Positions 12,063 to 57,237 of a DNA stretch of 64,000 bases are shown here, piece by piece. The stretch comes from an uncultured Opitutales bacterium (lineage in GTDB: Bacteria > Myxococcota_A > UBA9160 > SMWR01), in the NCBI GenBank assembly GCA_964194865.1, contig CAXMOC010000255.1, positions 3,090 to 67,089 on the forward strand. The letters are read 5' to 3'. Below the pieces are notes generated by a model. The model saw only the letters and a program-made list of their open reading frames with translations. It was not told where the DNA came from and searched no databases. Each line of letters opens with the position of its first letter. The stretch's first letter is position 1. A program made the position numbers and the translations under genes.

Positions 12063-13018
12063 GTGAGGATTTTTTTGGCCGGATCCGCTCGGCGTCCGCC
12101 CGCGTCATGGAGAGCGCCCGAGTGGTTCGGATCGACCCGGTGGCTCTAGCAGAGCTCGCAGACGAGCTCCCGACCAAACAAGCGCCGCAGCTTAGCCCCG
12201 CGCACCACTACATAGGGGAGCCCGACGACACCTTGGCTTTCATTCTCACCCTGGATGCGATCAACTTCGGCTCGGGATATTTCCCCTACCTGAACAAGCG
12301 GCCGGGCCTCTCGGGTTATTTCACGGTGGCCGCCTCGCTAAGGGAACGCTGGGAGTCCCAGGGCCCTTTCGGAGCCGACGAGCTCTCGGCTCTCTCGGCC
12401 GCAGATTGCGCGCAACTGATTCAGCAGGATCCGAGCGTTCCCGAGGTTGTGGAGCTGATGTCGCTCTTCGCGCGGGCGCTCAACGATCTGGGTGAATTTC
12501 TTCTTACACACTTCGATGGAGACCCAACCGGCCCGGTCGTTGCAGCCAATCAGTCCGCTGGTCGTCTCGCAGAGATCCTGATCCAGATGCCTCTCTACCG
12601 CGACGTCTCTCGTTACGGCGATTTCGAGGTTCCCTTCTACAAGCGCGCCCAGCTTACAGCTGCCGATCTCGCGGCAGCCTTCGACGGCAAGGGGTACGGA
12701 GCCTTTCTGGACCTCGATCAGCTCACGATCTTCGCGGATAACCTCGTTCCGCACGTGTTGAGACGCGAGGGAGTGCTCGTCTACGACGCCGAGCTCGCCT
12801 CGCGTATCGACGCCGGTGAGTTGCTGCTGGCCGGGTCGCCGGAAGAAGTGGAGATCCGCGCCGGAGCCGTTCACGCCGTTGAGCGGTCCGTGGCCAGGCT
12901 GCGCGAAGCAGGCGTAGACACGACCGCGCACCAGCTCGACTACGTGTTGTGGAACCGCGGGCAGCTGCCGGAAATGAAGGCGCATCCGCGGCACCGGGCG
13001 CGCACAACCTATTATTGA
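12059..13018 (+). CDS. queuosine-salvage protein Qng1 homologue (DUF2419)
   Basis: Collinear with human QNG1/C9orf64 as I recall it: LDAINFGSGYF, YRDVSRYGDFEVPFYKRAQLTAADL, LTIFADNLVPHVLR, EEVEIRAGAVHAVE, and the terminal LDYVLWNRG...HRARTTYY. Only the last 319 codons of the 641-aa track ORF are real. Confidence 0.85.
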   Translation: MSEDFFGRIRSASARVMESARVVRIDPVALAELADELPTKQAPQLSPAHHYIGEPDDTLAFILTLDAINFGSGYFPYLNKRPGLSGYFTVAASLRERWESQGPFGADELSALSAADCAQLIQQDPSVPEVVELMSLFARALNDLGEFLLTHFDGDPTGPVVAANQSAGRLAEILIQMPLYRDVSRYGDFEVPFYKRAQLTAADLAAAFDGKGYGAFLDLDQLTIFADNLVPHVLRREGVLVYDAELASRIDAGELLLAGSPEEVEIRAGAVHAVERSVARLREAGVDTTAHQLDYVLWNRGQLPEMKAHPRHRARTTYY

Positions 13019-13108
13019 TGTGAGACGGAGCGCGACCAACCCGTCTTGAGTTACGCTACCACGGTTGTTTGAGGGGCCTCGACCCCCCCCCGACCGCGGA
13101 GGAGAACC

Positions 13109-13840
13109 ATGGCTCAGAGTTCGTCAGGTGGTCCGTTGATCGCAGCGGCCGTAATCCTCGGCGGCGCCCTGGTAGGCGCCAGCTTCCTACTCAGCAAGTC
13201 CATCGATCGGGGGACCCAAACGCTCTCGAAGCTCGGTGGCTCGCTCGAGTCCGCTGTCGCTGCTCGAGATGCCGGAAGACCCGCAGCGCCCACGCGAGCA
13301 CGACGTCCGGATCCGAGTAAGGTCTACAACGTCGAGGTGGGCAGCGCGCCGGTTAAGGGACCCAAGTCTGCGGCCGTGACAGTCGTGGAGTGGGCAGACT
13401 TTCAATGACCTTACTGCGCGAGGGTCGGTCCGACCCTCCAGAAGGTCCAGGACAAGTACGGCGAGCAGGTTCGAGTCGTATTCAAGCACCTGCCTCTGTC
13501 CATCCACTCGAAGGCGCAGGCCGCCCACGAGGCCGCCGAGGCGGCCCACCAGCAGGGCAAGTTCTGGGAGATGCACGACAAGATCTTCGAGCACCAGCGA
13601 GAGATGAGCCCGGACAACTACCTGAAGTACGCCGGCGAGCTTGGCTTGGACGTCGACCAGTTCAAGGGCGACCTGAAATCCGCCACCGTCAAGGGGCGCA
13701 TCGACGGCGACAAGAAGTTGGCCAGCTCACTCGGCGTCACGGGAACGCCCGCGTTCTTCATCAATGGTCGATACCTGTCCGGCAATCAACCCTTCCCGGC
13801 GTTCGAGAAGATGATCGACACGGAGCTGGCCAAGAACTAG
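13109..13840 (+). CDS. membrane-anchored DsbA-like thiol:disulfide oxidoreductase, predicted selenoprotein (TGA 13406-13408 read as Sec, motif U-P-Y-C)
   Basis: Track ORFs 13109-13408 and 13571-13840 are in the same frame, and the TGA is the only stop between them. Read-through gives a complete DsbA/thioredoxin fold: VTVVEWADFQ-[TGA]-PYCARVGPTLQKV...VFKHLPL...GKFWEMHDKIF...GVTGTPAFFINGRYLSG. SD GGAGGAG lies before the ATG at 13109, and there is an N-terminal TM helix. Confidence 0.7.
13420..13438 (+). promoter_or_regulatory. candidate bacterial SECIS hairpin
   Basis: GAGGGTC-GGTCC-GACCCTC forms a perfect 7-bp (up to 9-bp) stem starting 11 nt after the TGA. The apical loop begins GGU, as in the E. 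coli fdhF SECIS loop. Confidence 0.55.
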
Positions 13841-24052: not shown

Positions 24053-25783
24053 ATGAGCGGACCCACCGGCGATCGCCTGATCCGAGTCGATATGACCCAG
24101 CTGAGCGCGACGACCGAGCCCTACCCGGACGAGTGGAAGCTGCTCGGTGGCCGGGCGTTGTCGGCAAAGATTCTGCTGACGGAATGCGATCCTGCGTGCG
24201 ACCCGCTCGGGTCGGAAAACGTGTTGGTCATGGCACCGGGCGTGATGTCGGGCACCGCGGCGCCCACCTCCGGCCGCATCTCGATCGGAGGCAAGAGCCC
24301 GCTGACCGGTGGGATCAAGGAAGCCAACGCCGGCGGGAATCCGGGTCAGGATCTGATGAAGCTCGGCTACCGCGTAATCATCGTGAAGGGCCAGCCTGCG
24401 GATCCGGAGAAGCGATACGCGCTCGACGTCACAGCGGAGGGCGCGACCGTCAAGGAAGCGCCCGACACCAAGGGCATGTGGAACTATGCGTTGATCGACC
24501 ACCTCGCCAAGAGTTACAGCCCGACGGTGTCGTTCATCTCGATTGGGCCCGCCGGCGAGCAGCTGCTCACCGGAGCCTCCGTAGCCTGCACGGATCAGGA
24601 GAAGGAGCGCCACCCCGCCCGGCACGCAGCCCGTGGTGGGCTCGGCGCAGTGATGGGAAGCAAGGGTCTCAAGTACGTCGCCATCGAGCCCGCCAAGACC
24701 AGGGCGCGCCAGGCCGCTGCCCGCAAGGAGTTTGCGGCGCGCAACAAGATGTATACGAAGGACTATCTCGAGGGTGGTCAGATCTTCAAGACGGGAACCA
24801 GCTCCGTCGTGCCCGTCGCCAACATGCTCCAGACCTTTCCTTACAAGAACCGAACCGAGGGCCAGTCCCCAGACGCCCAGACCCTCGACGGCGCCCGTAT
24901 CGTGGAGAGCTTCGAGGAGCGCGGTGGCGGCATGCACAACTGCATGACTGGCTGCATCGTCAAGTGCAGCAATGTTGTCCACGATGCCGACGGCAACTAC
25001 AAGACGTCCGCTCTCGAGTTCGAGACGCTTACGCTGCTGGGTGCCAACTGCGCGATTGCGAGCTGGGAGGACGTCGCTGACCTCGACCGACTCTGTGACG
25101 AAATCGGCGTCGATACGATCGAGACCGGCGCCGCGATCGCAGTCTATATGGATTCGGGCGGTATGGAATACGGCGATGCCGCGGGAGCGAAGCGCATCCT
25201 CGAGGAGATCGCTGAAGGTACCGAGCTGGGTAAGGCGATCGGCGACGGTGCCCTATCGATCGGCACCAAGCGCAAGCATCACCGTATCCCCGTGGTGAAG
25301 GGCCAGGCGATTCCCGCCTGGGATCCGAGACCCCTCAAGGCCACTGGTGTCACCTACGCGACGAGTCCGATGGGTGCCGATCACACGGCCGGGCTGATCG
25401 TGAACCCGGGCTTGCCGCCCGAGCAGTTCGCCCAGGCTTCCCAGGAGGTGCAGCTCATCAACGCGGTGTGTGATTCGTCGGGCTTCTGCCAGTTCCTACA
25501 GCCGACGCTCGACGATATTCGCGAGTACTACGGGATGCTCTACGGAGAGGAGGTCAGCCGAGAGCAGATCGCGGATCTCGGTTGGCAGTGCCTCCAGGAT
25601 GAGTGGGAGTTCAACCGCCGCGCCGGCTACACCGAGAAGGACGACGAGCTTCCGGATTGCATGAAGCAAGACCCGATCGGGCCCGCGAAGGTGGTCTTCG
25701 ACGTTCCCCGAGAAGTGGTCGCGGCTGCCTACGAGCGCTTCGATGCACGCGAGGAGCTCTTCACCGCCAAGGCGACGGGCTGA
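24053..25783 (+). CDS. aor: aldehyde:ferredoxin oxidoreductase (tungsto/molybdopterin AOR family)
   Basis: AOR N-domain: LIRVDM...LGGRALSAKILL, GKSPLTGGIKEANAGG. Cys cluster HNCMTGCIVKCS. C-terminal DSSGFCQF. SD GGAGGTG lies before the ATG. Confidence 0.9.
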   Translation: MSGPTGDRLIRVDMTQLSATTEPYPDEWKLLGGRALSAKILLTECDPACDPLGSENVLVMAPGVMSGTAAPTSGRISIGGKSPLTGGIKEANAGGNPGQDLMKLGYRVIIVKGQPADPEKRYALDVTAEGATVKEAPDTKGMWNYALIDHLAKSYSPTVSFISIGPAGEQLLTGASVACTDQEKERHPARHAARGGLGAVMGSKGLKYVAIEPAKTRARQAAARKEFAARNKMYTKDYLEGGQIFKTGTSSVVPVANMLQTFPYKNRTEGQSPDAQTLDGARIVESFEERGGGMHNCMTGCIVKCSNVVHDADGNYKTSALEFETLTLLGANCAIASWEDVADLDRLCDEIGVDTIETGAAIAVYMDSGGMEYGDAAGAKRILEEIAEGTELGKAIGDGALSIGTKRKHHRIPVVKGQAIPAWDPRPLKATGVTYATSPMGADHTAGLIVNPGLPPEQFAQASQEVQLINAVCDSSGFCQFLQPTLDDIREYYGMLYGEEVSREQIADLGWQCLQDEWEFNRRAGYTEKDDELPDCMKQDPIGPAKVVFDVPREVVAAAYERFDAREELFTAKATG

Positions 25784-25815
25784 CCGTCGCTCCAAGCGAA
25801 CTCGGCGGTTTCGGC

Positions 25816-25843
25816 GGGCAGGGAGACCGAGGTCTCCCTGCCC
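25816..25843 (+). terminator. strong hairpin between aor and moeA (intrinsic terminator or attenuator candidate)
   Basis: GGGCAGGGAGACC-GA-GGTCTCCCTGCCC is a perfect 13-bp stem, followed by GTTAAATTTCGG (moderately T-rich). It lies 16 nt before the moeA ATG. Confidence 0.5.
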
Positions 25844-25858
25844 GTTAAATTTCGGGGC

Positions 25859-27103
25859 ATGGGTATGCGTGACGTTCGCATGAAGGGTTTCGCCCAGCGG
25901 GCGGACGTAGAGGAAGTGGACGCCTTCCTGGGCGAGCACGCCCACGCGCTCGACGCCGAGCCGGTCGAGCTGCTGAAGTGTGCGGGACGCGTGCTCGCCG
26001 AAGATCTGTGCTCCGAAGTCGACGTTCCCGGCTTCGCACGCTCCGCCATGGACGGCTACGCGGTGAGGGGCGAGGACACTTTTGGCGCCGGTACCTACGA
26101 GCCCATCACATTGACACTCGAGGGAGAGGCGCTGCCCGGCCGGTCTTTCCCAGGGCGGGTCGAGTGCGGCACGGCCGTGCGGGTGATGACGGGCGCACCG
26201 CTTCCCGCTGGAGCCGACGCCGTCGTGATGGCCGAGGTCTGCGAAGAGCGCGACGGCAAGGTCGAGATCAGTGAAGCGGTCGCCCCGCAAAAGCACGTCG
26301 GAGCGGTCGGCGAGGACATTCGCTCTGGGGATCTGGTGCTTCGCGCCGGCCGGCGTCTGCGTGCTCAGGATGCGGGACTGCTCGCGTCGATCGGCGTCGC
26401 CAGCGTCCGTTGCATAAGACGCCCACGGGTCCAGCTGGTGATCACGGGAGACGAGCTTCTGCCTGCGGGGAGCCGACCCGAGGGCCCGAGCATCGTCGAC
26501 AGCAACTCGGTGGTGCTGCGCTCGCTGATCGCGCGCGACGGAGGCGAGGTGTTGCCCTTCGAGATCCTACAGGATCGTCCGGAGGTCATCCGGGACGCAC
26601 TGATCCGGCCAGGGGCCGATGTGGTTGTGGTATCGGGTGGTAGCTCAGTGGGCACCGAGGACCATGCGCCCCGGCTGGTCGCCGAGCTCGGCCAGCTCCA
26701 CTTCCACGGCATCTCCATGCGTCCCTCGAGCCCCACCGGTATCGGCCGGGTCGAAGGTCGACTGGTGTTCCTGTTGCCGGGCAATCCGGTCAGCTGCCTA
26801 TGCGCCTACGAGTTCTTCGCGGGGCCTCACCTGCGTGCACTCGGCGGGCGATTCCGGGGGTGGCCCCACCGCCGAGTCCGGCTGCCGCTGGCACGCAAGA
26901 TCAGCTCGGCGGTGGGTCGTACGGATTACGTGAGGGTTGCGATCGAAAACGAGCGGGTCGTGCCGATCGCGACCTCCGGGGCATCGATCCTGTCGTCGAC
27001 CGTGCGCGCTGCAGGCTGTGTGGTGGTGCCGCGGGAGCTTGAAGGAATGCCGGACGGCGCCGAGGTAGAGGTCCTGCTCTACGATGACGAGGGTGCTATT
27101 TGA
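25859..27103 (+). CDS. moeA: molybdopterin molybdo/tungstotransferase MoeA
   Basis: PGFARSAMDGYAVR, VRVMTGAPLP, VITGDEL, VVVSGGSSVGTEDH, LLPGNPVS. The stop overlaps the next start (TTGA at 27100-27103). Confidence 0.85.
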   Translation: MGMRDVRMKGFAQRADVEEVDAFLGEHAHALDAEPVELLKCAGRVLAEDLCSEVDVPGFARSAMDGYAVRGEDTFGAGTYEPITLTLEGEALPGRSFPGRVECGTAVRVMTGAPLPAGADAVVMAEVCEERDGKVEISEAVAPQKHVGAVGEDIRSGDLVLRAGRRLRAQDAGLLASIGVASVRCIRRPRVQLVITGDELLPAGSRPEGPSIVDSNSVVLRSLIARDGGEVLPFEILQDRPEVIRDALIRPGADVVVVSGGSSVGTEDHAPRLVAELGQLHFHGISMRPSSPTGIGRVEGRLVFLLPGNPVSCLCAYEFFAGPHLRALGGRFRGWPHRRVRLPLARKISSAVGRTDYVRVAIENERVVPIATSGASILSSTVRAAGCVVVPRELEGMPDGAEVEVLLYDDEGAI

Positions 27104-28998
27104 GACAGCAGCAATTCCTCGAAATTCTGGAGCGCGATGAGGCGGAGCGTCGCTGGCGCTCGGTGCTCGAGCTGACCTCGCTGCCGGCTGAGACCGTGGC
27201 GCTCGAGGACGCGTTGGGTCGGGTGCTGGCCGAAGACGTCCGGGCCGACGTGGACGTTCCCGGCTTCGATCGATCCAACATGGACGGCTTTGCGGTGCGT
27301 GCCGAGGACTGCTTCGGCGCCACCGAGGCGGAGCCCGTGATGCTGGACGCCAACTCGGAAACGATCCCAACGGGTATTGCTCCCACCGAGGAGGTGAAGT
27401 CCGGAACCGCGACGTCGATTGCCACGGGCGGCATGCTGCCGCGGGGCGCCGATGCGGTGCTGCCGGTGGAATTCACCGACATGGAGGGGGATCGGATCGA
27501 GGCTCGGCGCGAACGCGTACCCGGTGCTGCGGTCTCTTTTGCGGGCACCGACATCGGTCGGGGTGAGACTGTGCTCTTCCGTGGTGCCCTGCTGACTTCC
27601 CGGGAGACCGGGGTGCTTGCGGCGATCGGACATTCTGAAGTGTCGGTGGTTCGCCGTCCTCGCGTCGCAATCCTCTCCACGGGCGACGAGATCGTGCAGC
27701 CCGGAGAGCCGATGCGCCCCGGTCTCGTCTACGACAGCAACGGCCGGATTCTGGCCGACGCCGTGCGCGAGCTGGGCGGGGAGCCGAACTTCCTCGGCGC
27801 CTTTCGCGACGAAGAGACGCGGCTGCGCGAAGCTCTAGGCCGGGCTCTTCGGACTGCGGATCTGGTGCTGCTGTCCGGAGGCACCTCGAAAGGGGAAGGT
27901 GACCTCAACGCGAGGGTCGTCGCGGATCTGGATCCCGGGATCGTCGTACACGGAGTTGCGCTCAAGCCGGGCAAGCCGATCTGCCTGGCCGCCTCCGGGA
28001 GGCTTCCGGTGGTGGTCCTGCCCGGCTTTCCGACTTCCGCGGTTTTCACCTTCCACGAGTTTGTCGCTCCCGTGATTCGCGAGCTTGCCGGGAGGGCCCC
28101 CGGCCGACGGGAGCAAAGTCAAGCGCGCCTGGCGACCAAGACGACTTCCGAGCGCGGCCGCCTCGAATACCTGTTGGTCGGTCTGGTACGGCGCCCCGAT
28201 GGGCAGTTGGCCGCCTATCCGATGGGCAAGGGCAGCGGCAGCGTTACTGCCTTCAGCAGGGCGGACGGGTTCGTACGCATTCCGCGCAATACCGAAATCG
28301 TCGACGCCGACACCGAGGTCGAGGTCACCCTGTTGTCTCGAGAGCTTCCGCTCGCCGACTTCGTGGCCATCGGGAGCCACTGCATCGGCCTCGACTGCCT
28401 GGCGGGAGCGCTCGCCCGCAGGGGTTTCACGGTGAAACTGATGGCAGTCGGGAGCCAAGGCGGGCTTGCGGCAGCGCGGCGGGGCGAGTGTGACGTCGCT
28501 CCGATCCACTTGCTCGACCCCGTGAGTGGCGAGTACAACCGCCCGTTCCTCGATTCCTCATTGAAGCTGCTGCCGGGCTACGCCCGCCAGCAGGGTGTCG
28601 TGACCCGCGCCGATGACGACCGCGATACCGACGCGCTGCTCGCGGACCCGATGCTGCGAATGGTCAACCGCAATCGGGGCAGCGGCACACGAATCCTGAT
28701 CGACCAACTTCTGGGGAAGCGCCGTCCAGCAGGCTATCCCTACGAACCGCGTTCACACTACGCTGTAGCGGCTGCGGTCGCCCAGGGACGCGCCGATTGG
28801 GGTGTTACGATCGAGACCATCGCTCGCCAGGCTGGGCTTCGCTTCCGGCCACTCCAGGCGGAACACTATGACTTTGCCATCCCCGTCAATCGCTGGGACC
28901 GCCCCGCCGTGGTGGCGCTGCGCGAGCTGTTGGCGTCGGGCGGAGAGTTGCGCGAGCAGCTCGAAACCCTAGGGTTCGGGCCGACGGAGTCGACCTGA
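27100..28998 (+). CDS. moeA: MoeA fused to a C-terminal periplasmic-binding-protein-like (type-2 PBP) domain
   Basis: N-terminal ~400 aa repeat the MoeA motifs: PGFDRSNMDGFAVR, SIATGGMLP, STGDEIV, LLSGGTSKGEGD, VLPGFPTS. The C-terminal ~220 aa (FVAIGSHCIGLD...NRNRGSGTRILID...ADWGVTIE) look like a PBP2 substrate-binding fold. TTG start. Confidence 0.8.
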   Translation: MRQQQFLEILERDEAERRWRSVLELTSLPAETVALEDALGRVLAEDVRADVDVPGFDRSNMDGFAVRAEDCFGATEAEPVMLDANSETIPTGIAPTEEVKSGTATSIATGGMLPRGADAVLPVEFTDMEGDRIEARRERVPGAAVSFAGTDIGRGETVLFRGALLTSRETGVLAAIGHSEVSVVRRPRVAILSTGDEIVQPGEPMRPGLVYDSNGRILADAVRELGGEPNFLGAFRDEETRLREALGRALRTADLVLLSGGTSKGEGDLNARVVADLDPGIVVHGVALKPGKPICLAASGRLPVVVLPGFPTSAVFTFHEFVAPVIRELAGRAPGRREQSQARLATKTTSERGRLEYLLVGLVRRPDGQLAAYPMGKGSGSVTAFSRADGFVRIPRNTEIVDADTEVEVTLLSRELPLADFVAIGSHCIGLDCLAGALARRGFTVKLMAVGSQGGLAAARRGECDVAPIHLLDPVSGEYNRPFLDSSLKLLPGYARQQGVVTRADDDRDTDALLADPMLRMVNRNRGSGTRILIDQLLGKRRPAGYPYEPRSHYAVAAAVAQGRADWGVTIETIARQAGLRFRPLQAEHYDFAIPVNRWDRPAVVALRELLASGGELREQLETLGFGPTEST

Positions 28999-30327
28999 GT
29001 GGCCACCCAGCTGCGCCGGGGCTCCCGCGTCGGAAAGTATCGGATCGATCGCAGGATCGGGCGAGGCGCCTTCGCCGAAGTCTGGAAGGCGCGCGACACG
29101 GTCGAGAACCGCCCGATCGCACTCAAGCTGACCCGGCCCGATGCGGTGGCAGAGTGGGGCCGCCATGCGATCGAACACGAGGCGCGCATCGCGAGCCGGC
29201 TCGATCACCCGGGTTTGGTTGCCATTCGCAATGCTGACTGGATCGACGGCTGCTTCGCCATCGTGACAGACCTCGCGCTCTGCAATCTCGCCAACTACAC
29301 AAGAGCGCGCCGCTCTGCGGCTACCGCCCTCGAGGTCATTCGCGAGGTGGCGTCCGGGCTGGCCTACGCCCACGAGAGGCGCATCTTTCATCGAGACGTC
29401 AAGCCCGAGAACATCCTGATCTTCGAAGATGGCCGCGCCGCGCTCGCTGACTTCGGCGCGTCGCGCTTTGCCAAGGGTGCGGAGCGCACCGTAACGGACG
29501 CGGGTACGCTCGGTTACATGGCGCCGGAGCAAGCCTACGGGCGCGGGCGCTTTACCTCGGACGTCTTCTCGCTCGGACTGATCGGTTACGAGCTGCTCAC
29601 CGGAGTGCTGCCGTCTTGGCCCTTCGAGTGGCCGCCGCCCGGCCACGATCGCTTTGCTGCCAAGGTGCCCGAATCTCTGCGTCCGGTGCTGCGCAAGGCC
29701 GCCCAGTTCGATCCGCGTCGGCGCTATGTCGATGGCGGCGAGTTCTATCACGCGCTGGAGCGCGCGTTCACCCAGGCCGAGCGCCCGAAGGCGAGCCCTC
29801 CGATTCGCCGCAAGCGACGAGCACCGCCTTCGCCGCTCGCCGTCCAGGCCAACGCCTTTCGCCGCGCCCACGGCAAGGGTCTCGGCATGCGCTTCTCTTG
29901 CCGCCGCTGCGAGAGCCCAATTGCCGAGGCGATGCAGTTCTGCCCCTGGTGCGGAGCATCCGACAACTCCTATCGCGACCTGACGAGCTTTCCGCTGGTG
30001 TGCCCGGACTGCGAGAAGGGGGTGCGCGCCGAGTGGAACGCCTGTCCGTGGTGTTACCCAGGCCGCTTCGTCGGAAACGGCCGCAAGCCGCTGCGCGATG
30101 CCAAGGCGGTGCGCCGTTGTGCGGGCCGGAGCTGTGAGGGACAGCTCCGCCCCTTCATGCGTTACTGTCCGCTCTGCAAGCGCAAGACCAAGCGCGTGTG
30201 GTCGCATCGCAATCTGCCCGATCGCTGTCCGCGCTGCCGCTGGCCGACTTCCCACGCCTTCATGCGCTTCTGCCCCTGGTGCGGTCGCCGCGAATCCCGC
30301 GCGGGCTCGTTTTTATCGGCGCGCTGA
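28999..30327 (+). CDS. Hanks-type Ser/Thr protein kinase with four C-terminal zinc-ribbon repeats
   Basis: IGRGAFAEVWKA, IALK, HRDVKPENIL, LADFGAS, GYMAPE. Then four C-x2-C...C-x2-C units: CRRCES..FCPWCG, CPDCEK..ACPWCY, CAGRSCEG..YCPLCK, CPRCRW..FCPWCG. The GTG at 28999 directly abuts the moeA stop (TGAGTG). Confidence 0.85.
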   Translation: MATQLRRGSRVGKYRIDRRIGRGAFAEVWKARDTVENRPIALKLTRPDAVAEWGRHAIEHEARIASRLDHPGLVAIRNADWIDGCFAIVTDLALCNLANYTRARRSAATALEVIREVASGLAYAHERRIFHRDVKPENILIFEDGRAALADFGASRFAKGAERTVTDAGTLGYMAPEQAYGRGRFTSDVFSLGLIGYELLTGVLPSWPFEWPPPGHDRFAAKVPESLRPVLRKAAQFDPRRRYVDGGEFYHALERAFTQAERPKASPPIRRKRRAPPSPLAVQANAFRRAHGKGLGMRFSCRRCESPIAEAMQFCPWCGASDNSYRDLTSFPLVCPDCEKGVRAEWNACPWCYPGRFVGNGRKPLRDAKAVRRCAGRSCEGQLRPFMRYCPLCKRKTKRVWSHRNLPDRCPRCRWPTSHAFMRFCPWCGRRESRAGSFLSAR

Positions 30328-30643
30328 ACCACCTCACCGATCGAACGAGCGGGCCGCCTGGGCCCAGCCAGCTCGGCGCTCGCTCGCCCCGAGTGGTCTG
30401 CCCAGGCGTTTCGCGAACCCCGTGCGGGCTCGTTTTTGTCGGCCCGCTGAACCACCTCGTCGGTGCCCCTGGGCCCCGGCCAGCTCGATGCTCGATTAAC
30501 CCGAGTGGTCTGCCCAGGCGTTTCGCGAACCCCGCGCGGGCTCGTTTTTGTCGGCCCGCTGAACCACCTCGTCGGTGAAACGAGCGGGGCCCCTGGGCCC
30601 CGGCCAGCTCGATGCTCGATTAACCCGAGTGGTCTGCCCGGGC
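30289..30643. repeat. tandem array of three ~112-123 bp structured repeat units (30289-30411, 30412-30523, 30524-30643)
   Basis: Each unit reads cgcgaa(t/c)cccg.gcgggctcgttttt(a/g)tcgg.ccgctgaaccacctc...cctgggccc.gccagctcg...ccgagtggtctgccc. Units 2 and 3 are near-identical apart from a 12-nt indel (aaacgagcgggg), and unit 1 is more diverged. Internal inverted repeats are GCGGGC...GCCCGC and GGGGCCC-CT-GGGCCCC. The array overlaps the stop codons of both flanking convergent genes. Confidence 0.85.
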
Positions 30644-31711
30644 TAGTAGCCGGAGTGCCTGCGCCTTGATGATCGCGTAGACCTCGACTCCGGGCCGCAG
30701 CTCTAGGGCGTCGACGGCTGCTGGAGTGACCTTGGCCACGAGGGGTTCGCCGGCGTCCAGGTGGATGCGCGCGTTGTCACCGCTGACTTCGCAGGTCGAC
30801 ACGGTCGCACGGATTGCATTGCGGGCGGAGATACGGCCGGGAGGATCACGGCTGAGCAGCACATCTTCGGCGCGCAATCCCAGCCGAACCGATTCGCCGG
30901 CCGGCAGTGTCACAGGGATGACCAGGCGCAAGCCGGCTCGAGTTTCGACGGTGGAGCCCGCGCCGCTGTTCTCCACCACCCGGCCGTCGATCGCATTCTC
31001 CAGGCCCAGTGCTTCCGACACCGGCAGCACCGCCCGGCTCCACAAGACCTCGCGCGGAGGGCCGCACGCGACGACGCGGCCGCGGTCGAGCACTGCGACG
31101 ATGTCACCAACCAGCATCGCTTCGTCGGGGTCGTGGGTGATGTAGACGATGGGGATGTCGAGCTCGTCGCGCACGCGGAGCAGATAGGGCAGGACCCGGG
31201 CGCGCAGCGGCCAATCCAGGGCTGCCAGCGGCTCGTCCAGCAGGAGGGTGCGGGGGCCGGCGGCGAGTGCGCGGGCGATCGCCACGCGCTGGCGCTCGCC
31301 CCCGGAAAGCTCGCCCACTCCGCGCCCGAGCAGGTCGCCGATTTCCAGCGCTTCGATCGCTCGCTCGACGGAGGGCGCCGTGCGGCCGTGGGCGCGTCGC
31401 CGCCCGAAGCGGAGATTGCCCGCTACGGACAGGTGAGGGAATAGCGTCGGGTCCTGGGGAACCCAGCCGAGCGCGCGATCCTCGACGGCGAGACGCAGGC
31501 CCCGCTCGGCATCGTCGAGCCAGACGCCGCCCAGCTGGATTCTCCCGCGCGCCTCGGGGATCAATCCCAGGGCGGCGTGGAAGAGGGTCGATTTGCCCGA
31601 GCCGCTGGGGCCGAAGATCACCGCAACTCGCTCGTGCCAGCCGAAATCGACGTCGAGCCGGAAGCCCGCTCGCTCGAGCTTGAGCTGGATTCGTGACTCG
31701 GTGCCGCTCAC
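30620..31711 (-). CDS. modC: molybdate ABC transporter ATP-binding protein with C-terminal TOBE/Mop domain
   Basis: The GTG at 31711 overlaps the modB stop (GTGA). Walker A GPSGSGKST, signature LSGGERQRVAIARAL, Walker B LLLDEPLAALD. The TOBE-like tail is ISARNAIRATVSTCEVSGDNARIHLDAG. The rest of the 635-aa track ORF is an out-of-frame shadow over modB. Confidence 0.85.
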   Translation of the reverse strand: MSGTESRIQLKLERAGFRLDVDFGWHERVAVIFGPSGSGKSTLFHAALGLIPEARGRIQLGGVWLDDAERGLRLAVEDRALGWVPQDPTLFPHLSVAGNLRFGRRRAHGRTAPSVERAIEALEIGDLLGRGVGELSGGERQRVAIARALAAGPRTLLLDEPLAALDWPLRARVLPYLLRVRDELDIPIVYITHDPDEAMLVGDIVAVLDRGRVVACGPPREVLWSRAVLPVSEALGLENAIDGRVVENSGAGSTVETRAGLRLVIPVTLPAGESVRLGLRAEDVLLSRDPPGRISARNAIRATVSTCEVSGDNARIHLDAGEPLVAKVTPAAVDALELRPGVEVYAIIKAQALRLLARADHSG

Positions 31712-32376
31712 CGGTGACCCCGTCGCAACCAGCCTTCGCCAATCAGCATTGCCGCGAGCGCGATCGTGAAGGAAGCGGTGCACAGCGCGAGGGCTCCGGC
31801 GTCGTCTCCGAGCAGGACGCGCGAGTAGATTCCCAGCGCCAGGGTCTCGGTCCGGCCTGGAATGATCCCCGCCACCAGGGTGGTGGCGCCGAACTCGCCG
31901 AGGGCGCGCGTGAAGCTCAGCAGAGCACCGTAGAGCACCCCACGCCGGGCCAATGGCAACGTGACACGAAAAAATGTTGACAAAGGACTCAGCCCAAGAG
32001 AGCGGGCTACTTGCTCGAAGCGGGGGTCGACTTCCGCGAACGATTGCTCGCACGCCCGTACCAGCAGCGGGAAGCCCACTGTGCCCGCTGCGAGCACCGC
32101 CGCCCACCAGCTGAAGACGATCTCGACCTCGAGCGCGGACCACAGCGCGCCGAGCGGCCCGCGGGGCCCCAGCAACAGCAACAGGAACAGGCCAACGGCG
32201 ACGGGCGGCAGCACCATGGGTAGCGCGATCAGCGCCTGAAGCAGTGATTTTCCGGCGAACTCTCGTCGGGCGAGGGTGTGTCCGAGGAAAACGGCAGGTG
32301 GCAGAATTGTAAGCGTCGCCACCACCCCCACGCGCAAGGTGAGCGCGGTGATCGAGAGCAGCTCCTCGGCGCTCAT
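31708..32376 (-). CDS. modB: molybdate ABC transporter permease
   Basis: 222 aa, five to six hydrophobic helices, EAA-loop region FEQVARSLGLSPLSTFFRVTLPLARRG. ATGA overlap with the modA stop. Confidence 0.85.
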   Translation of the reverse strand: MSAEELLSITALTLRVGVVATLTILPPAVFLGHTLARREFAGKSLLQALIALPMVLPPVAVGLFLLLLLGPRGPLGALWSALEVEIVFSWWAAVLAAGTVGFPLLVRACEQSFAEVDPRFEQVARSLGLSPLSTFFRVTLPLARRGVLYGALLSFTRALGEFGATTLVAGIIPGRTETLALGIYSRVLLGDDAGALALCTASFTIALAAMLIGEGWLRRGHR

Positions 32377-33194
32377 TCGACTTTTCCTCTGTCGCGGGCG
32401 TTAGAATTGGGAGCGCTAGCGAAGCCCGCCGCACCCAGAACCCGCTGGGCGGAGTCGCCCGCCAGAAACTGCACGAAGCGCCGAGCGAGCGGCAGGCTTC
32501 GCGACTCAGCGAGTGGCGCCGCGACATAGAAGATGTGCGGTTGCTCGCCCAACGGCACTTCGAACGCCACCCGCGCCGAGCGCGCGAGCGCGGCGTCGGT
32601 CGCGTAGACGATCGCGACGTCCGCGTGGCCGAGATCGACGGCGCTCAGCGTGGCACGGGCGTGCTCGGTCTGGAGCATCCGGGGGGCGAGGCGCTCGAGC
32701 AGCTGGTGGGTGCCCAGCCATTCCCGGGCATAGCGGCCCACTGGAACCGCGTGCTCGGGGATCGCGATTCTGCGCACGGCGGGGCCGGCGAGATCTGCGG
32801 CATTTGCAATTGCGTGCCCTGTCTGCGCTGAAGCGATCACCACGAGCCGGTTGCGAGCGATGGGCCGTGGGTCTCCAGGCGCAACCAGCCCCGCGGTGAC
32901 CAGCGGCGCGACGAGGCGAGCATCGGCCGAGACGAAGACGTCGATGGGCGCACCAGCGCGTATCTGATGGGCCAGCACGCTGCTCGCGCCGAAGCTCAGC
33001 GTGATTACCGCGTCTGGATGCGCCGCCTCGAAGTGCTCAGCGATGGACAGCAGGGGCTCGCGAAGGCTCACCGCGGCCCCCACCAGTAGCTCCGCTTCCA
33101 ACCCACCCGCGACCAGCAGAAGCAGCGCTGCGGCCAGCCAGGCCCCAAGGGAACGGGCCCTGGAGGTGCCACTCGAATCGCGCTGGCTCGCCAT
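32373..33194 (-). CDS. modA: molybdate(/tungstate)-binding periplasmic protein
   Basis: ATG at 33194 with SD GGGAGGA. Signal LGAWLAAALLLLVAGG. ModA-type motifs LSFGASSVLAHQI, DVFVSAD, DVAIVYATDA. The upstream part of the 431-aa track ORF is discounted. Confidence 0.8.
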   Translation of the reverse strand: MASQRDSSGTSRARSLGAWLAAALLLLVAGGLEAELLVGAAVSLREPLLSIAEHFEAAHPDAVITLSFGASSVLAHQIRAGAPIDVFVSADARLVAPLVTAGLVAPGDPRPIARNRLVVIASAQTGHAIANAADLAGPAVRRIAIPEHAVPVGRYAREWLGTHQLLERLAPRMLQTEHARATLSAVDLGHADVAIVYATDAALARSARVAFEVPLGEQPHIFYVAAPLAESRSLPLARRFVQFLAGDSAQRVLGAAGFASAPNSNARDRGKVE

Positions 33195-33308
33195 CGGATC
33201 CTCCCAGCGTCGCGATGAATACCGAACTTCAGCTCGTTTTCCCTTCGAGGGGTTGTCGGCCGACGGTGGCGTGGCAGGATAGGGGGCTGCCAATCCGGGG
33301 GGCAGGGC

Positions 33309-33755
33309 GTGCGGAAACCCATCATCCTCACTGCACTCGCGGTGATGCTTCTCGTCGCCGCCTCGCTCTGGCTCGAGGAAGGCGAGGTCGTCACCCTCGT
33401 TACCACCGACGACCAGGGCCAGGAATTCGAGACCGGGCTTTGGATCGTCGACCTCGACGGCGTGCCCTATCTGCGGGCGGAGTCCGCTGACGCCAGCTGG
33501 CTCGATCGGATCCGCGCTCGGTCCGACGTTCAGCTCGATCGCGCGGGCCGACGCTTTGCCTATCGCGCGATCCCCCTCGACGATGCGAAGATTCGCGAAG
33601 CCGTGAATCAAGCGATGGACGAGAAGTACGGCGGCCTGGATCGCGTGTTGGTCTGGCTCTGGGATCACTCGGGCGCGGTGCCGATCCGTCTCGACCGACT
33701 ACCCACAGCGAATTCGATGCCGCACAGTGACCTCAGGGTCGGAGCGGTTCGATAG
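33309..33755 (+). CDS. hypothetical membrane-anchored protein (possibly split-barrel/DUF385-like)
   Basis: N-terminal TM/signal MRKPIILTALAVMLLVAASLW. The remainder has coding-like composition (VVTLVTTDDQGQEFETGLWIVDLDGVPYLRAE...). The family assignment is only a loose resemblance. Confidence 0.45.
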   Translation: MRKPIILTALAVMLLVAASLWLEEGEVVTLVTTDDQGQEFETGLWIVDLDGVPYLRAESADASWLDRIRARSDVQLDRAGRRFAYRAIPLDDAKIREAVNQAMDEKYGGLDRVLVWLWDHSGAVPIRLDRLPTANSMPHSDLRVGAVR

Positions 33756-54823: not shown

Positions 54824-54928
54824 TCAGGCCTGGGCATCCTTGGCCGCCTTCTTGCGGGCCAGGCGCCGCTTGCGCCGGATCTTGTGGGCGTGTCGCTTGA
54901 CCTTCTGCTTGTTCTTGCTCCGAGCCAT
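54824..54928 (-). CDS. unannotated 34-aa highly basic small protein
   Basis: Reverse strand: GGAGGA-ATCG-ATG GCT CGG AGC AAG ... GCC TGA = MARSKNKQKVKRHAHKIRRKRRLARKKAAKDAQA. It falls below the ORF-track length cutoff. It has a strong SD, and a GC hairpin (CTCGGCG-GGG-CGCCGAG) lies just after the stop. Confidence 0.5.
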   Translation of the reverse strand: MARSKNKQKVKRHAHKIRRKRRLARKKAAKDAQA

Positions 54929-55003
54929 CGATTCCTCCGGTCCCAACGGACCGCACAAACTAGTCGAATCGAGCGCGTCGCGCCGCTCGGAACCCATCGC
55001 GGC

Positions 55004-56455
55004 TCAGTCGTCGAGGATCTCGCTCATCACCGTGCCCATTGCGGCGGTTTCGTCATCGTGGAGCGACTCGACGGCCGGTAAGCTGGCCAGCAGCTTTTCC
55101 AGTTTCTCGGCCACCACGGAGTGCACGGTGTCGAAGACGACGCCCATGCCATCGTGCCCATCGCTGCGCGCAATCGTGCCCCAGATCAGGAAGGGCTCCT
55201 CGCCGGCAGCGCCGTAGATCGCCAAGTGCAAGCGATCTCCCACCTCGAGATCCGGGTGAGAAGCGATCCGCATGCCACCCACGCTGAGATCACGTCCCAC
55301 GAGCACGCGCAACGCCCGGGTGCCGAAGGCCGGAACCTTGGCTTCGAAGGGGAGGCGCTCCGTGGAGCGCCTCTCATTGGGCGACTCAGATTGGTCCGCG
55401 GCCTGTTCGGCCTGTTCGTCCGGGTTGTCCTGGATCGGAGCCATCTTTACATCGACGGGTATGGCGGCGAGCTCGCCCGAAACCTGGCCATCGAGTTTCG
55501 TATCGAGCTCCGCGTCGAGTTCCGGCCTGGGGGTTGCGTCCGGCGGGGGCGGCGAGCCCGAGCCCTCGGTTCGCGGATCAGGTTTGTAGTTGGGTGACAC
55601 CCGTTCGAGAATCGTGCGCTTGCTTCTCGCCGGCCGGCGCAGTTTCATCTTCGCTTGGGCCTTCGAGGGGGGAGTAGTCTCTTCCTCTTCCGTGTCGAGC
55701 CACTCGGATCCCAGTCCGCTGGCGTCGCGCAAGGCGGGAGGTCCCCCCGCCTTGTCCTCGATGATCCAGTCGAGCTCGCGTCGCGCTTCATTGGACAAAT
55801 CCTGGAACTCGACGGCTGCGCTGTACATGCCACCCGTGCCGAGCCGTTCATCGAAGACGGTGCGCAGGATTCGCCCGTCGATCGTGAAGGGCTCGCTGGC
55901 GCCGAGGGACTCGGGCACCTGGAGCCGTATCTTTCGGTCGGGCTCCAGGGTGTAGGAAGAAATCAGCCGACATCCGCGGGAGGAGAGATCCACGAGGGTG
56001 GCGCGTCTCGCCAATACTCCCGTGCGAAAGGAAACTTCGAGCCCCACGGCAACGCGCGGTTCGCCGCGGCGCTCCTCGCCGCGGTAGAGGCTGTGCATGA
56101 TCAGCAGCCGGAGCGCCTCTGGATGCACCGGGCGACGCACCAGGAAGTCGAAGCCGACCTCTCGGAGCTTTTCTCGTAGCTTGTTCGAATCTTCGTTGAC
56201 GATGACGATCCGCACGGGCTGATCTTCCGGCGCGTCCGTTGATGGGCTCGGGATACGTCGCGGTGTCGCCACCAGCAGGGACTTGGGCGCCGGTGTGTTG
56301 GGGGCGATCGCTTCCCCCCTCACCCTGGCGAAATCGACTCCCAGCTCTTCGAGAATCTCCTGAACGTCGTCGAGCTCCCCGTCGTCGAGGAGTAGGATCT
56401 CAGAGGAATGCGCCACTGTGAGTACCTCGATCTGCCCGTTCGCGGGCTCGGCCAC
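55004..56455 (-). CDS. dual-PilZ-domain c-di-GMP-binding protein
   Basis: Two PilZ signatures: RRGEPR...DLSSRGC and RRSTER...DLSVGGM (RxxxR ... DxSxxG). An acidic/Pro-rich linker separates them. The start is GTG at 56455 or 56416 (VAHSSEILLLDDG). The remainder of the 719-aa track ORF is a shadow over the CPBP gene. Confidence 0.7.
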   Translation of the reverse strand: MAEPANGQIEVLTVAHSSEILLLDDGELDDVQEILEELGVDFARVRGEAIAPNTPAPKSLLVATPRRIPSPSTDAPEDQPVRIVIVNEDSNKLREKLREVGFDFLVRRPVHPEALRLLIMHSLYRGEERRGEPRVAVGLEVSFRTGVLARRATLVDLSSRGCRLISSYTLEPDRKIRLQVPESLGASEPFTIDGRILRTVFDERLGTGGMYSAAVEFQDLSNEARRELDWIIEDKAGGPPALRDASGLGSEWLDTEEEETTPPSKAQAKMKLRRPARSKRTILERVSPNYKPDPRTEGSGSPPPPDATPRPELDAELDTKLDGQVSGELAAIPVDVKMAPIQDNPDEQAEQAADQSESPNERRSTERLPFEAKVPAFGTRALRVLVGRDLSVGGMRIASHPDLEVGDRLHLAIYGAAGEEPFLIWGTIARSDGHDGMGVVFDTVHSVVAEKLEKLLASLPAVESLHDDETAAMGTVMSEILDD

Positions 56456-56457
56456 TC

Positions 56458-57237
56458 TTAGGAGTCGTCCAATCCGGCCTGCGGCTGTAATCCGGGCTCT
56501 CGCGAGGCTCGAGGCCCAGACGCGTCCAGATCCGGCTTGAGGCGCCGCCAGAGCCCAACGAGCACGAGAAGCGAGAAGGCGGTGGACAGCGCGATCGCGA
56601 TCGGACCGGCAGCCGCGGAATCCGTCTCCGATGCAGCCCACAACACCGCAACCGCATTGTTGGTTGCGTGGCAGACGATCGAGGCGCGGACGCTTCCAGC
56701 CAGGTAGGCGACGGCGCCGAAGTATGCCCCGATGACCGCCGTGAGAATCGAGTAGACCGGATCCGCGTGAAGCACGCCGAAGAGCAGGGCGGCGCCGAGA
56801 ATGGCGACAGCCGGCCCACGGCGGGCCTCCAAGCCGCGTTGCACGAGCCCGCGGCACAGTAACTCTTCGGCGATCCCAGGTGCCAACGCGAAGCACAACA
56901 GCGCGAGGACAATTTCTGCGCCGCGAGCTCCCGCCAGCTCGCGCGCGAGCACCGCAGGCGTGCTGTCCGCATGCGGAACCATCTGGTAGACGCCGTCGAG
57001 GCCGTAGCTCAGGCTGAGCGTTCCCAGCGCCAACATCAGCAGCGCAGCCCAGGAAAGGCGGCTCTTCCCGAGGCCCAGCCTCGAACTCACCCCTAGGCGC
57101 GAAGAGGAGGCCACCGCCACTGTGAAGAAGGCGAGAAACACCGCGCCTCGAAGCCCGACCCAATAGCTCCCCCAGTCGCCGTCACTGGGCACCGATCCGA
57201 GAGCCACCCAGCTTGCGGCCAATACCACCGGCAGCAT
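56458..57237 (-). CDS. CPBP-family (CAAX/Abi) intramembrane glutamic endopeptidase
   Basis: ATG at 57237. Motifs IAEELLCRG (EExxxR), LLFGVLH (FxxxH), CHATNN (HxxxN). Multiple TM helices. Confidence 0.8.
   Translation of the reverse strand: MLPVVLAASWVALGSVPSDGDWGSYWVGLRGAVFLAFFTVAVASSSRLGVSSRLGLGKSRLSWAALLMLALGTLSLSYGLDGVYQMVPHADSTPAVLARELAGARGAEIVLALLCFALAPGIAEELLCRGLVQRGLEARRGPAVAILGAALLFGVLHADPVYSILTAVIGAYFGAVAYLAGSVRASIVCHATNNAVAVLWAASETDSAAAGPIAIALSTAFSLLVLVGLWRRLKPDLDASGPRASREPGLQPQAGLDDS

Follow-up and report, generated by a model that had tools for sequence, protein, structure and literature searches.

A split DsbA-type disulfide oxidoreductase gene with a probable active-site selenocysteine in the genome of an uncultured bacterium

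The window analysed here is a 64,000-nucleotide (nt) stretch of DNA from an uncultured bacterium (GenBank assembly GCA_964194865.1, contig CAXMOC010000255.1, positions 3,090 to 67,089 of the forward strand). Two plus-strand open reading frames (ORFs) are listed in the region 13109–13840, one at 13109–13408 (99 amino acids, aa) and the other at 13571–13840 (89 aa). Both lie in the same frame, and translation of 13109–13840 showed that the sole stop codon between them is the TGA at 13406–13408, which stands in the context VEWADFQ-TGA-PYCARVGPTL and is followed by an open frame of 143 codons. When the TGA is read through, the region encodes a 243-aa product that matches the Pfam families DSBA (PF01323, E 3.6e-29) and Thioredoxin_4 (PF13462, E 1.3e-24), and the presence of a DsbA/thioredoxin-fold domain is also seen in matches to DsbA, ScsC and BdbD in the PDB. 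Residues 9–28 of the product form a hydrophobic segment, PLIAAAVILGGALVGASFLL, which is kept in the aligned homologues; the protein is probably anchored in the membrane with its domain outside the cytoplasm. The initial annotation of this DNA had described a gene split into these two pieces in one frame by a single TGA, and had predicted that read-through yields a full-length, membrane-anchored protein of the DsbA/thioredoxin fold. Both statements were borne out by the ORF list, the translation and the Pfam matches, with the topology being deduced from the hydrophobic segment. With a probability that we put at roughly 0.88, 13109–13840 is a single gene that gene callers have split and that encodes a membrane-anchored disulfide oxidoreductase of the DsbA type carrying selenocysteine (Sec) in its active site. 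The features of the locus, including a candidate selenocysteine insertion sequence (SECIS), are as follows.

13098–13104, plus strand: putative Shine-Dalgarno-like GGAGGAG 5′ of the ATG at 13109, from reading of the sequence.
13109–13840, plus strand: proposed single read-through coding sequence for a 243-aa DsbA-family thiol:disulfide oxidoreductase, with Sec at residue 100, ending at TAG (ORFs, Pfam, alignment).
13133–13192, plus strand: hydrophobic segment, residues 9–28, probable membrane or signal anchor that would place the domain outside the cytoplasm (sequence).
13406–13408, plus strand: UGA, proposed selenocysteine U100, position 1 of the U-P-Y-C redox motif (Cys alignment, other loci, three assemblies).
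13407–13447, plus strand: extended predicted SECIS helix, with a lower stem of 13407–13412 paired with 13442–13447 and a middle stem of 13414–13416 paired with 13439–13441 (RNAfold).
13415–13417, plus strand: TGC, predicted resolving Cys103 of U-x-x-C (invariant column C103 in the alignment).
13420–13438, plus strand: predicted SECIS upper stem-loop, either an 8-bp stem (13420–13427 with 13431–13438) and a GUC loop or 7 bp and a GGUCC loop (sequence, RNAfold, relatives).
13745–13750, plus strand: Thr213-Pro214 of an invariant G-T-P motif 3′ of the UGA (invariant columns G212, T213 and P214), which probably occupies the position of the cis-proline loop of the thioredoxin fold.

When 5.8 billion proteins were searched with the read-through protein, its homologues numbered in the thousands, and many of them are 241–246 aa long, cover 100% of the query at 55–63% identity and are collinear over the full length. 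At the column occupied by the TGA, Cys was present in 23 of the 23 aligned full-length homologues, within the motif C-P-[FY]-C, and motifs encoded 3′ of the TGA, including G212-T213-P214, were invariant in this alignment and intact in the window protein. The initial annotation had placed the TGA at the nucleophilic Cys of the redox motif and had suggested an alignment with Cys-containing homologues as a check; Cys sits on the TGA column in every Cys-type homologue.

The same arrangement occurs elsewhere. Sequence collections were scanned at the codon level with the pattern E-x-[AS]-D-F-Q-TGA-P-[FY]-C, back-translated to a 30-nt degenerate pattern (~44 bits) that would be expected to match by chance ~0.07 times over the 1.2e12 positions of genome_contigs. 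The scan uncovered at least 240 further loci that carry TGA at the active-site codon (hereafter Sec-type), at least 120 of them in genome_contigs and at least 120 in metagenome_contigs. Among the matches listed, the genome loci belong to metagenome-assembled genomes (MAGs) labelled Myxococcota, Acidobacteriota, Chloroflexota, Planctomycetota, Verrucomicrobiia and others. By blastp, 248 of the 248 listed pattern matches were DsbA homologues of the window protein, and the open frame that follows the TGA had a median length of 151 codons, reaching at least 140 codons in nearly all of them, which is not the pattern of decaying pseudogenes. The scan of viral_contigs gave 0 matches with TGA, TAA/TAG and TGY (TGC or TGT) alike at this codon, a result that is uninformative because the Cys form is absent there too.

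Some Sec-type loci showed further peculiarities. Multiple Sec-type DsbA genes, each with its own TGA, lie within a few kb of one another at L071 (three matches) and at L002, L077 and L192 (two each); three of these loci are in Myxococcota/Myxococcales MAGs and one is on a metagenome contig. At L043 (read-through product of 427 aa), a Sec-type DsbA domain is joined at its C-terminal side to a peptidyl-prolyl isomerase domain of the cyclophilin type (PRK10903, 72 bits, below the cutoff), forming a foldase-plus-selenoprotein fusion, and L070 (read-through product of 440 aa) is highly similar to it in sequence. These two loci are in Anaerolineae/Chloroflexia MAGs.

The hairpin GAGGGTC-GGTCC-GACCCTC (13420–13438) starts 11 nt after the TGA, and RNAfold extends it by one G-C pair to an 8-bp stem that closes a GUC loop. 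The 61-nt segment 13400–13460 was predicted to fold with a free energy of −24.6 kcal/mol (z −3.6), and 0 of 200 shuffles were as stable. According to a 2026 review (PMC13188914, Fig. 2A), the bacterial SECIS (bSECIS) consensus consists of an apical loop of 3–9 nt on an upper stem of 4–16 bp, a G in the first two loop positions in the arrangement N1-G-[G/U]-N-N2 with N1 and N2 paired, a UGA-to-loop distance of 16–37 nt, and a minimum free energy of −7.5 kcal/mol or lower. The hairpin of the window has 8 bp and 3 nt, or 7 bp and 5 nt; its loop region reads G-G-U-C-C at 13427–13431, where G13427 pairs with C13431; the distance from the UGA to the loop is 18 nt for the 5-nt loop or 19 nt for the 3-nt loop; and the energy over 61 nt is well below the limit. 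The initial annotation, which had reported a perfect hairpin with a loop starting GGU at a position suited to a bacterial SECIS element, therefore agrees with the sequence and with all four published constraints. The lower stem of the extended helix begins at the G of the UGA and was found in some relatives only, which does not imply that it is required. No Rfam match was obtained for the whole window at the gathering thresholds or for 13000–13600 at E ≤ 1, which has no bearing on the hairpin, and the fold of the 5′ leader (13016–13111) was not significant (z −1.2), despite a long stem returned there by the hairpin scan.

Among the matches listed, the hairpin was present in the register of the window in 110 of the 233 unique Sec-type sequences, which make up the RVGPTL class. 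The proteins of this class are ~42–58% identical to the window protein (more over partial alignments), and the 19 nt are almost invariant: in this class, among the Sec-type loci L001–L240, the near-invariant hairpin is GAGGGTCGGTCCGACCCTC, located at +14 to +32 nt from the TGA, and it was found across listed MAGs labelled Myxococcota, Acidobacteriota, Planctomycetota and Verrucomicrobiia. In the window gene these 19 nt are identical to the element that Sec-type DsbA genes carry in Myxococcota, Acidobacteriota, Planctomycetota and Verrucomicrobiota. The conservation, a check suggested by the initial annotation, runs through fixed synonymous codons in 96 distinct Sec-type sequences, with Val encoded by GTC in 96/96, Gly by GGT in 96/96, Pro by CCG in 94/96 and Arg by AGG or AGA in 89/96; the Pro at +3 in the same 96 genes uses all four codons (47/37/8/4). 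Seven Cys-type orthologues had DNA that could be compared. Six of them encode VGPTL, preceded by Arg as CGC or CGG (His CAC in L245) and with Gly as GGC, GGG or GGT, and the perfect stem was found in 0 of the 7, with a local fold of −6.2 to −9.3 kcal/mol versus a median of −14.1 kcal/mol in the Sec class (24 nt). The stem was also absent from all 13 Cys-type paralogues within the examined loci, and the residue at the loop position is free to vary in 120 Cys-type proteins (N in 68, G in 8, T in 7, E in 6, and others). As far as the compared genes go, the conservation of the hairpin is specific to Sec-type genes and absent from their Cys-type orthologues, and the combination of a TGA at the Cys column with this Sec-specific conserved hairpin lies far beyond chance.

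Base pairing in the hairpin was examined in an alignment of the RVGPTL class only, so the count of paired changes is descriptive. Pairing was intact in 97.9% of cells in register versus 23–60% when the 3′ partner was slid by 1–3 columns. Double-sided changes were observed at three pairs (G-C to A-U twice and G-C to C-G) in 13 cells, and the covariation score was reached by 0 of 500 shuffles. Across 234 Sec-type relatives, the modal distance from the UGA to the loop was 19 nt and the loops mostly begin with GU, CG or GG. In other Sec subclasses, mostly from Chloroflexota, hairpins of another sequence occupy a similar offset; GCTTGCC-GTG-GGCAAGC and ACGTC-CGTGA-GACGT are examples.

The gene is embedded in the order M20 peptidase, aconitase, DAGK/YegS, Q_salvage, the DsbA gene, SBP_bac_3+CM_2 (minus strand) and CSD, followed by NAD synthase, MaoC, AKR, DUF1329, DHH and AFOR. 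The window is collinear over >20 kb with locus L244, where the DsbA gene (L244:10001–10741) encodes a Cys-type protein, P0009, that is 63% identical to the window protein; none of the 240 listed Sec-type loci has the neighbourhood of the window. Judged by gene order and alignment, Sec and Cys are interchanged within one group of positional orthologues, a pattern of Sec/Cys interchange in orthologues that was described by Zhang et al. 2006 (PMC1794560). The exchange may have come about by convergence through a few synonymous changes, by transfer of a short tract, or by repeated loss of Sec to Cys, and a block-wise, ungapped comparison of nt identity gave a weak hint of a Sec-like centre with Cys-like ends. 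We entertain only tentatively, as the less favoured possibility, that the window gene switched recently, and in place, between Cys and Sec within this group. If the change ran from Cys to Sec, the SECIS would have arisen either through ~3–4 synonymous changes in the RVGPTL stretch that converged on one hairpin optimal for SelB binding or through short-tract transfer of a cassette made up of the TGA and the SECIS, and the family would then provide a natural series on the birth of a recoding signal inside a coding sequence. The clean pair of Sec and Cys orthologues at a collinear locus is in any event useful for studies of Sec/Cys exchange.

Further along the window, the region 24053–33668 contains the AFOR gene, two MoeA-family genes (one of them a PBP-like fusion), and an ABC binding protein with its permease (SBP_bac_11, BPD_transp_1). 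This cluster is consistent with the use of a tungsten or molybdenum cofactor and is unrelated to the DsbA gene.

Several observations weigh against Sec at the TGA. Within the 64-kb window, no tRNA was detected by ARAGORN or by Rfam at gathering thresholds and no SelA, SelB or SelD was detected by Pfam scans of 50 gene products, confirming the statement of the initial annotation that selA, selB, selC and selD are absent from the window. A screen of the periodicity of GC content at third codon positions (GC3) yielded no further in-frame TGA candidate in the window, although its power is low, since it also missed the DsbA TGA. Under the loose bSECIS consensus, an uninterrupted, consensus-compatible stem of at least 8 bp follows 34 of the 1395 TGA trinucleotides in the window (2.4%; 1.9% in shuffles). 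The hairpin was consequently rejected as stand-alone proof of Sec, and since it proves little by itself, the case rests on the comparative evidence. Moreover, the bulged U17 of the Escherichia coli fdhF SECIS has no counterpart here: position 17 of the window element is G13422, which is paired, and the 5′ arm is paired throughout. In a neighbor-joining tree with the active site and the hairpin residues masked, the window gene fell in a mostly Cys-type clade (P0009, P0104, P0117, P0023, P0065 and P0097) with one Sec-type member, L147, and its sister was Cys-type in 48 of 60 bootstraps; the Sec-type sample consists of the listed matches only and the Cys-type sample was chosen by similarity to the query, which biases this comparison. 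Nesting in a syntenic Cys-type clade is also what is expected after a fresh TGY-to-TGA nonsense mutation. Finally, of the five within-population changes located after the TGA, four are non-synonymous and one is synonymous, a ratio based on small numbers and on variable columns. These differences from L247 and L248 lie at window positions 13454, 13592, 13600, 13610 and 13805 and comprise K116E, H162N, P168A and E233Q plus one synonymous change, with all four amino-acid changes falling at columns that vary among homologues.

A recent pseudogene is the rival that has to be considered most seriously, that is, a Cys-type DsbA gene struck by a TGY-to-TGA nonsense mutation, or one caught by a recent loss of Sec decoding, that now yields the 99-aa fragment only. 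The tree position, the synteny with Cys-type loci only among the loci listed, the lack of Sec machinery within the 64-kb window and the 4:1 ratio of changes would all suit it. We nevertheless regard it as improbable, because a nonsense mutation would not bring with it the codon set AGG GTC GGT CCG ACC CTC, which was found in 0 of the 7 Cys-type orthologues and 0 of the 13 paralogues, and because the coding signal downstream of the TGA is conserved. In four strains the frame of 143 codons after the TGA is intact, with no frameshift or second stop, and the ratio of non-synonymous to synonymous substitution rates (dN/dS) over these codons is 0.24–0.44 versus six Sec-type relatives, indicating purifying selection and answering another check that the initial annotation had proposed. 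An error of sequencing or assembly, with TGC or TGT as the true codon, would need a change of one base only, but this can be set aside almost entirely: an identical 99-aa N-terminal product is present in three independent assemblies from different samples (Logan ERR13301385, ENA ERZ23498524 and ENA ERZ24794554), which are 99.3–99.7% identical to the window at the nt level and differ from it at other sites, yet all have the same TGA and the identical hairpin, and the hairpin codon set was found with TGA only. The base call, whose confirmation the initial annotation had proposed, is reproduced in these three assemblies.

It is also very improbable that the locus makes two separate products, a small membrane peptide from 13109–13408 and an independently started C-terminal fragment from 13571–13840. 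Public gene callers do give exactly these pieces, and the gene is split in all three public assemblies, with the downstream piece called only in L247; a protein look-up of the 89-aa C-terminal ORF returned no record. However, a product of only these 89 aa would be missing the CxxC helix along with half of the thioredoxin fold, the stretch of 54 codons between the two pieces (13409–13570) is conserved and in frame, and no start signal was seen before 13571 in the sequence and ORF list. A reassigned genetic code, in which TGA would specify Trp or Gly throughout the genome, has next to no probability. Nothing specific in the window favours it, and TGA ends 33 of the 56 gene calls there, with Pfam domains complete up to the stop; TGA is thus an ordinary stop codon in this genome and the code is not reassigned. 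The GC content of 65% speaks against reassignment as well, as do the homologues, which all have Cys at the TGA column rather than Trp or Gly.

With regard to Sec machinery near other members of the family, a gene for tRNA-Sec stands ~400 nt away from the Sec-type DsbA gene at L145 (identified by ARAGORN and by Rfam RF01852 with 74.4 bits, the gathering score being 47), which offers indirect support for the Sec reading of the family. At this locus (L145:87–2105), a thioredoxin-reductase-like gene (Pyr_redox_2, 87–1070), the tRNA-Sec (1143–1239) and the Sec-type DsbA gene (1377–2105, with its TGA near 1656) adjoin one another. In the window itself, everything that the GC3-periodicity screen picked up was either an antisense frame or a junction between genes in the same frame. 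The one interesting hit, the TGA at 55004 on the minus strand, was considered as a Sec candidate and rejected, as it lies between a PilZ-like gene and a small basic ORF. In this region (54824–56460, minus strand) the PilZ-like gene ends at the TGA at 55004–55006, and the gene caller chose weaker plus-strand ORFs. The ORF that follows in the same frame, at about 54824–54928, encodes 34 aa and is very basic (MARSKNKQKVKRHAHKIRRKRRLARKKAAKDAQA); it is not a Sec candidate.

If the TGA is decoded as Sec, the Sec-specific elongation factor SelB with Sec-tRNA(Sec) would bind the hairpin at 13420–13438 in the mRNA, with G23 and U24 in the apical loop, and the UGA at 13406–13408 would then be decoded as Sec100 instead of causing termination by release factor 2. 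Binding by SelB and actual insertion of Sec are, from the sequence evidence, what most likely takes place in the host. The full-length U-P-Y-C enzyme would exchange thiols and disulfides on exported substrates through a mixed selenenylsulfide intermediate, and it may serve either as an oxidase or as an isomerase/reductase. Such a protein would give an uncultured lineage with the appearance of Myxococcota a Sec-dependent disulfide oxidoreductase that probably acts outside the cytoplasm.

The predicted SECIS can be compared with the minimal SECIS of E. coli fdhF, a 17-nt stem-loop comprising nt 15–31, 11 nt from the UGA, with G23 and U24 in the loop and a bulged U17 (Liu et al. 1998, as reviewed in PMC8659212). 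When the U of the UGA is counted as nt 1, the stem in the window also starts at nt 15, and G23 (13428) and U24 (13429) are in the loop; the stem differs in having 8 bp as opposed to about 5+3. The fdhF loop, like that of the window, reads GGUC. The Cys-type positional orthologues (P0009 on L244, P0094 on L241 and P0073 on L245) resemble the window protein in having the same length and 59–63% identity, and their genes stand in the same order of DAGK/YegS, Q_salvage and DsbA, to which L244 adds SBP_bac_3+CM_2, CSD and NAD synthase. They differ from the window gene in having TGY at the active-site codon and ordinary codons after it, with no perfect hairpin.

The selenoprotein proposed here is of a kind already known since 2004–2005, and this work is an annotation correction, not a discovery. 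Zhang and Gladyshev 2005 (PMC1088965) described DsbG-like selenoproteins and, with nine UxxC sequences from the Sargasso Sea, DsbA-like ones; a DsbA-like selenoprotein was reported in the myxobacterium Anaeromyxobacter dehalogenans (PMC1794560), and DsbA-like form 1 (PF01323) and the DsbG-like family (NF041057) are both included in the 2026 review (PMC13188914). The catalogued UxxC families also agree with the assertion of the initial annotation that replacement of Cys by Sec in the CxxC motif of thiol oxidoreductases is a known context for selenoproteins. The window protein shares with DsbA-like form 1 the DSBA domain, a Sec that comes first in UxxC and is aligned to Cys, and, right after the UGA, a stem-loop whose small apical loop contains G. 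That family was defined on COG2761 (FrnE-like), whereas the window protein is nearer to BdbD, ScsC and actinobacterial DsbA, a comparison made through the family description and PDB matches. The best PDB matches of the window protein were 7unn and 4pwo (E ~4e-20), versus E 1.6e-6 for FrnE, and the nearest solved structures are those of actinobacterial DsbA (7unn, 4pwo), ScsC (4gxz) and BdbD (3eu3).

Knowledge of Sec decoding is unchanged by one more DsbA-like gene, and the value of the case lies in annotation. The subfamily comprises at least 96 distinct Sec-type sequences, and its scores fall far short of the cutoff in the single curated (seleno)protein model that matches it, so that a pipeline relying on NF041057 would probably miss its Sec form. 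A dedicated model combined with the hairpin 11 nt after the TGA would recover the Sec-type genes. NF041057 (Rcas_1661 family thioredoxin-like (seleno)lipoprotein) was the best NCBIfam match of the window protein, with E 2.9e-29 and 102.4 bits, below the curated cutoff of 190. The RVGPTL class scored 105–124 bits against this model and L001, from Dehalococcoidia, 159 bits; the matches from Chloroflexota are near NF041057. The window protein has the same UxxC motif as the NF041057/DsbG-like proteins, but its N-terminus has a plain hydrophobic anchor in place of the lipobox Cys. Given its score below the cutoff and the lack of a lipobox Cys, the window protein belongs to a sister subfamily of NF041057 that the NF041057 model misses.

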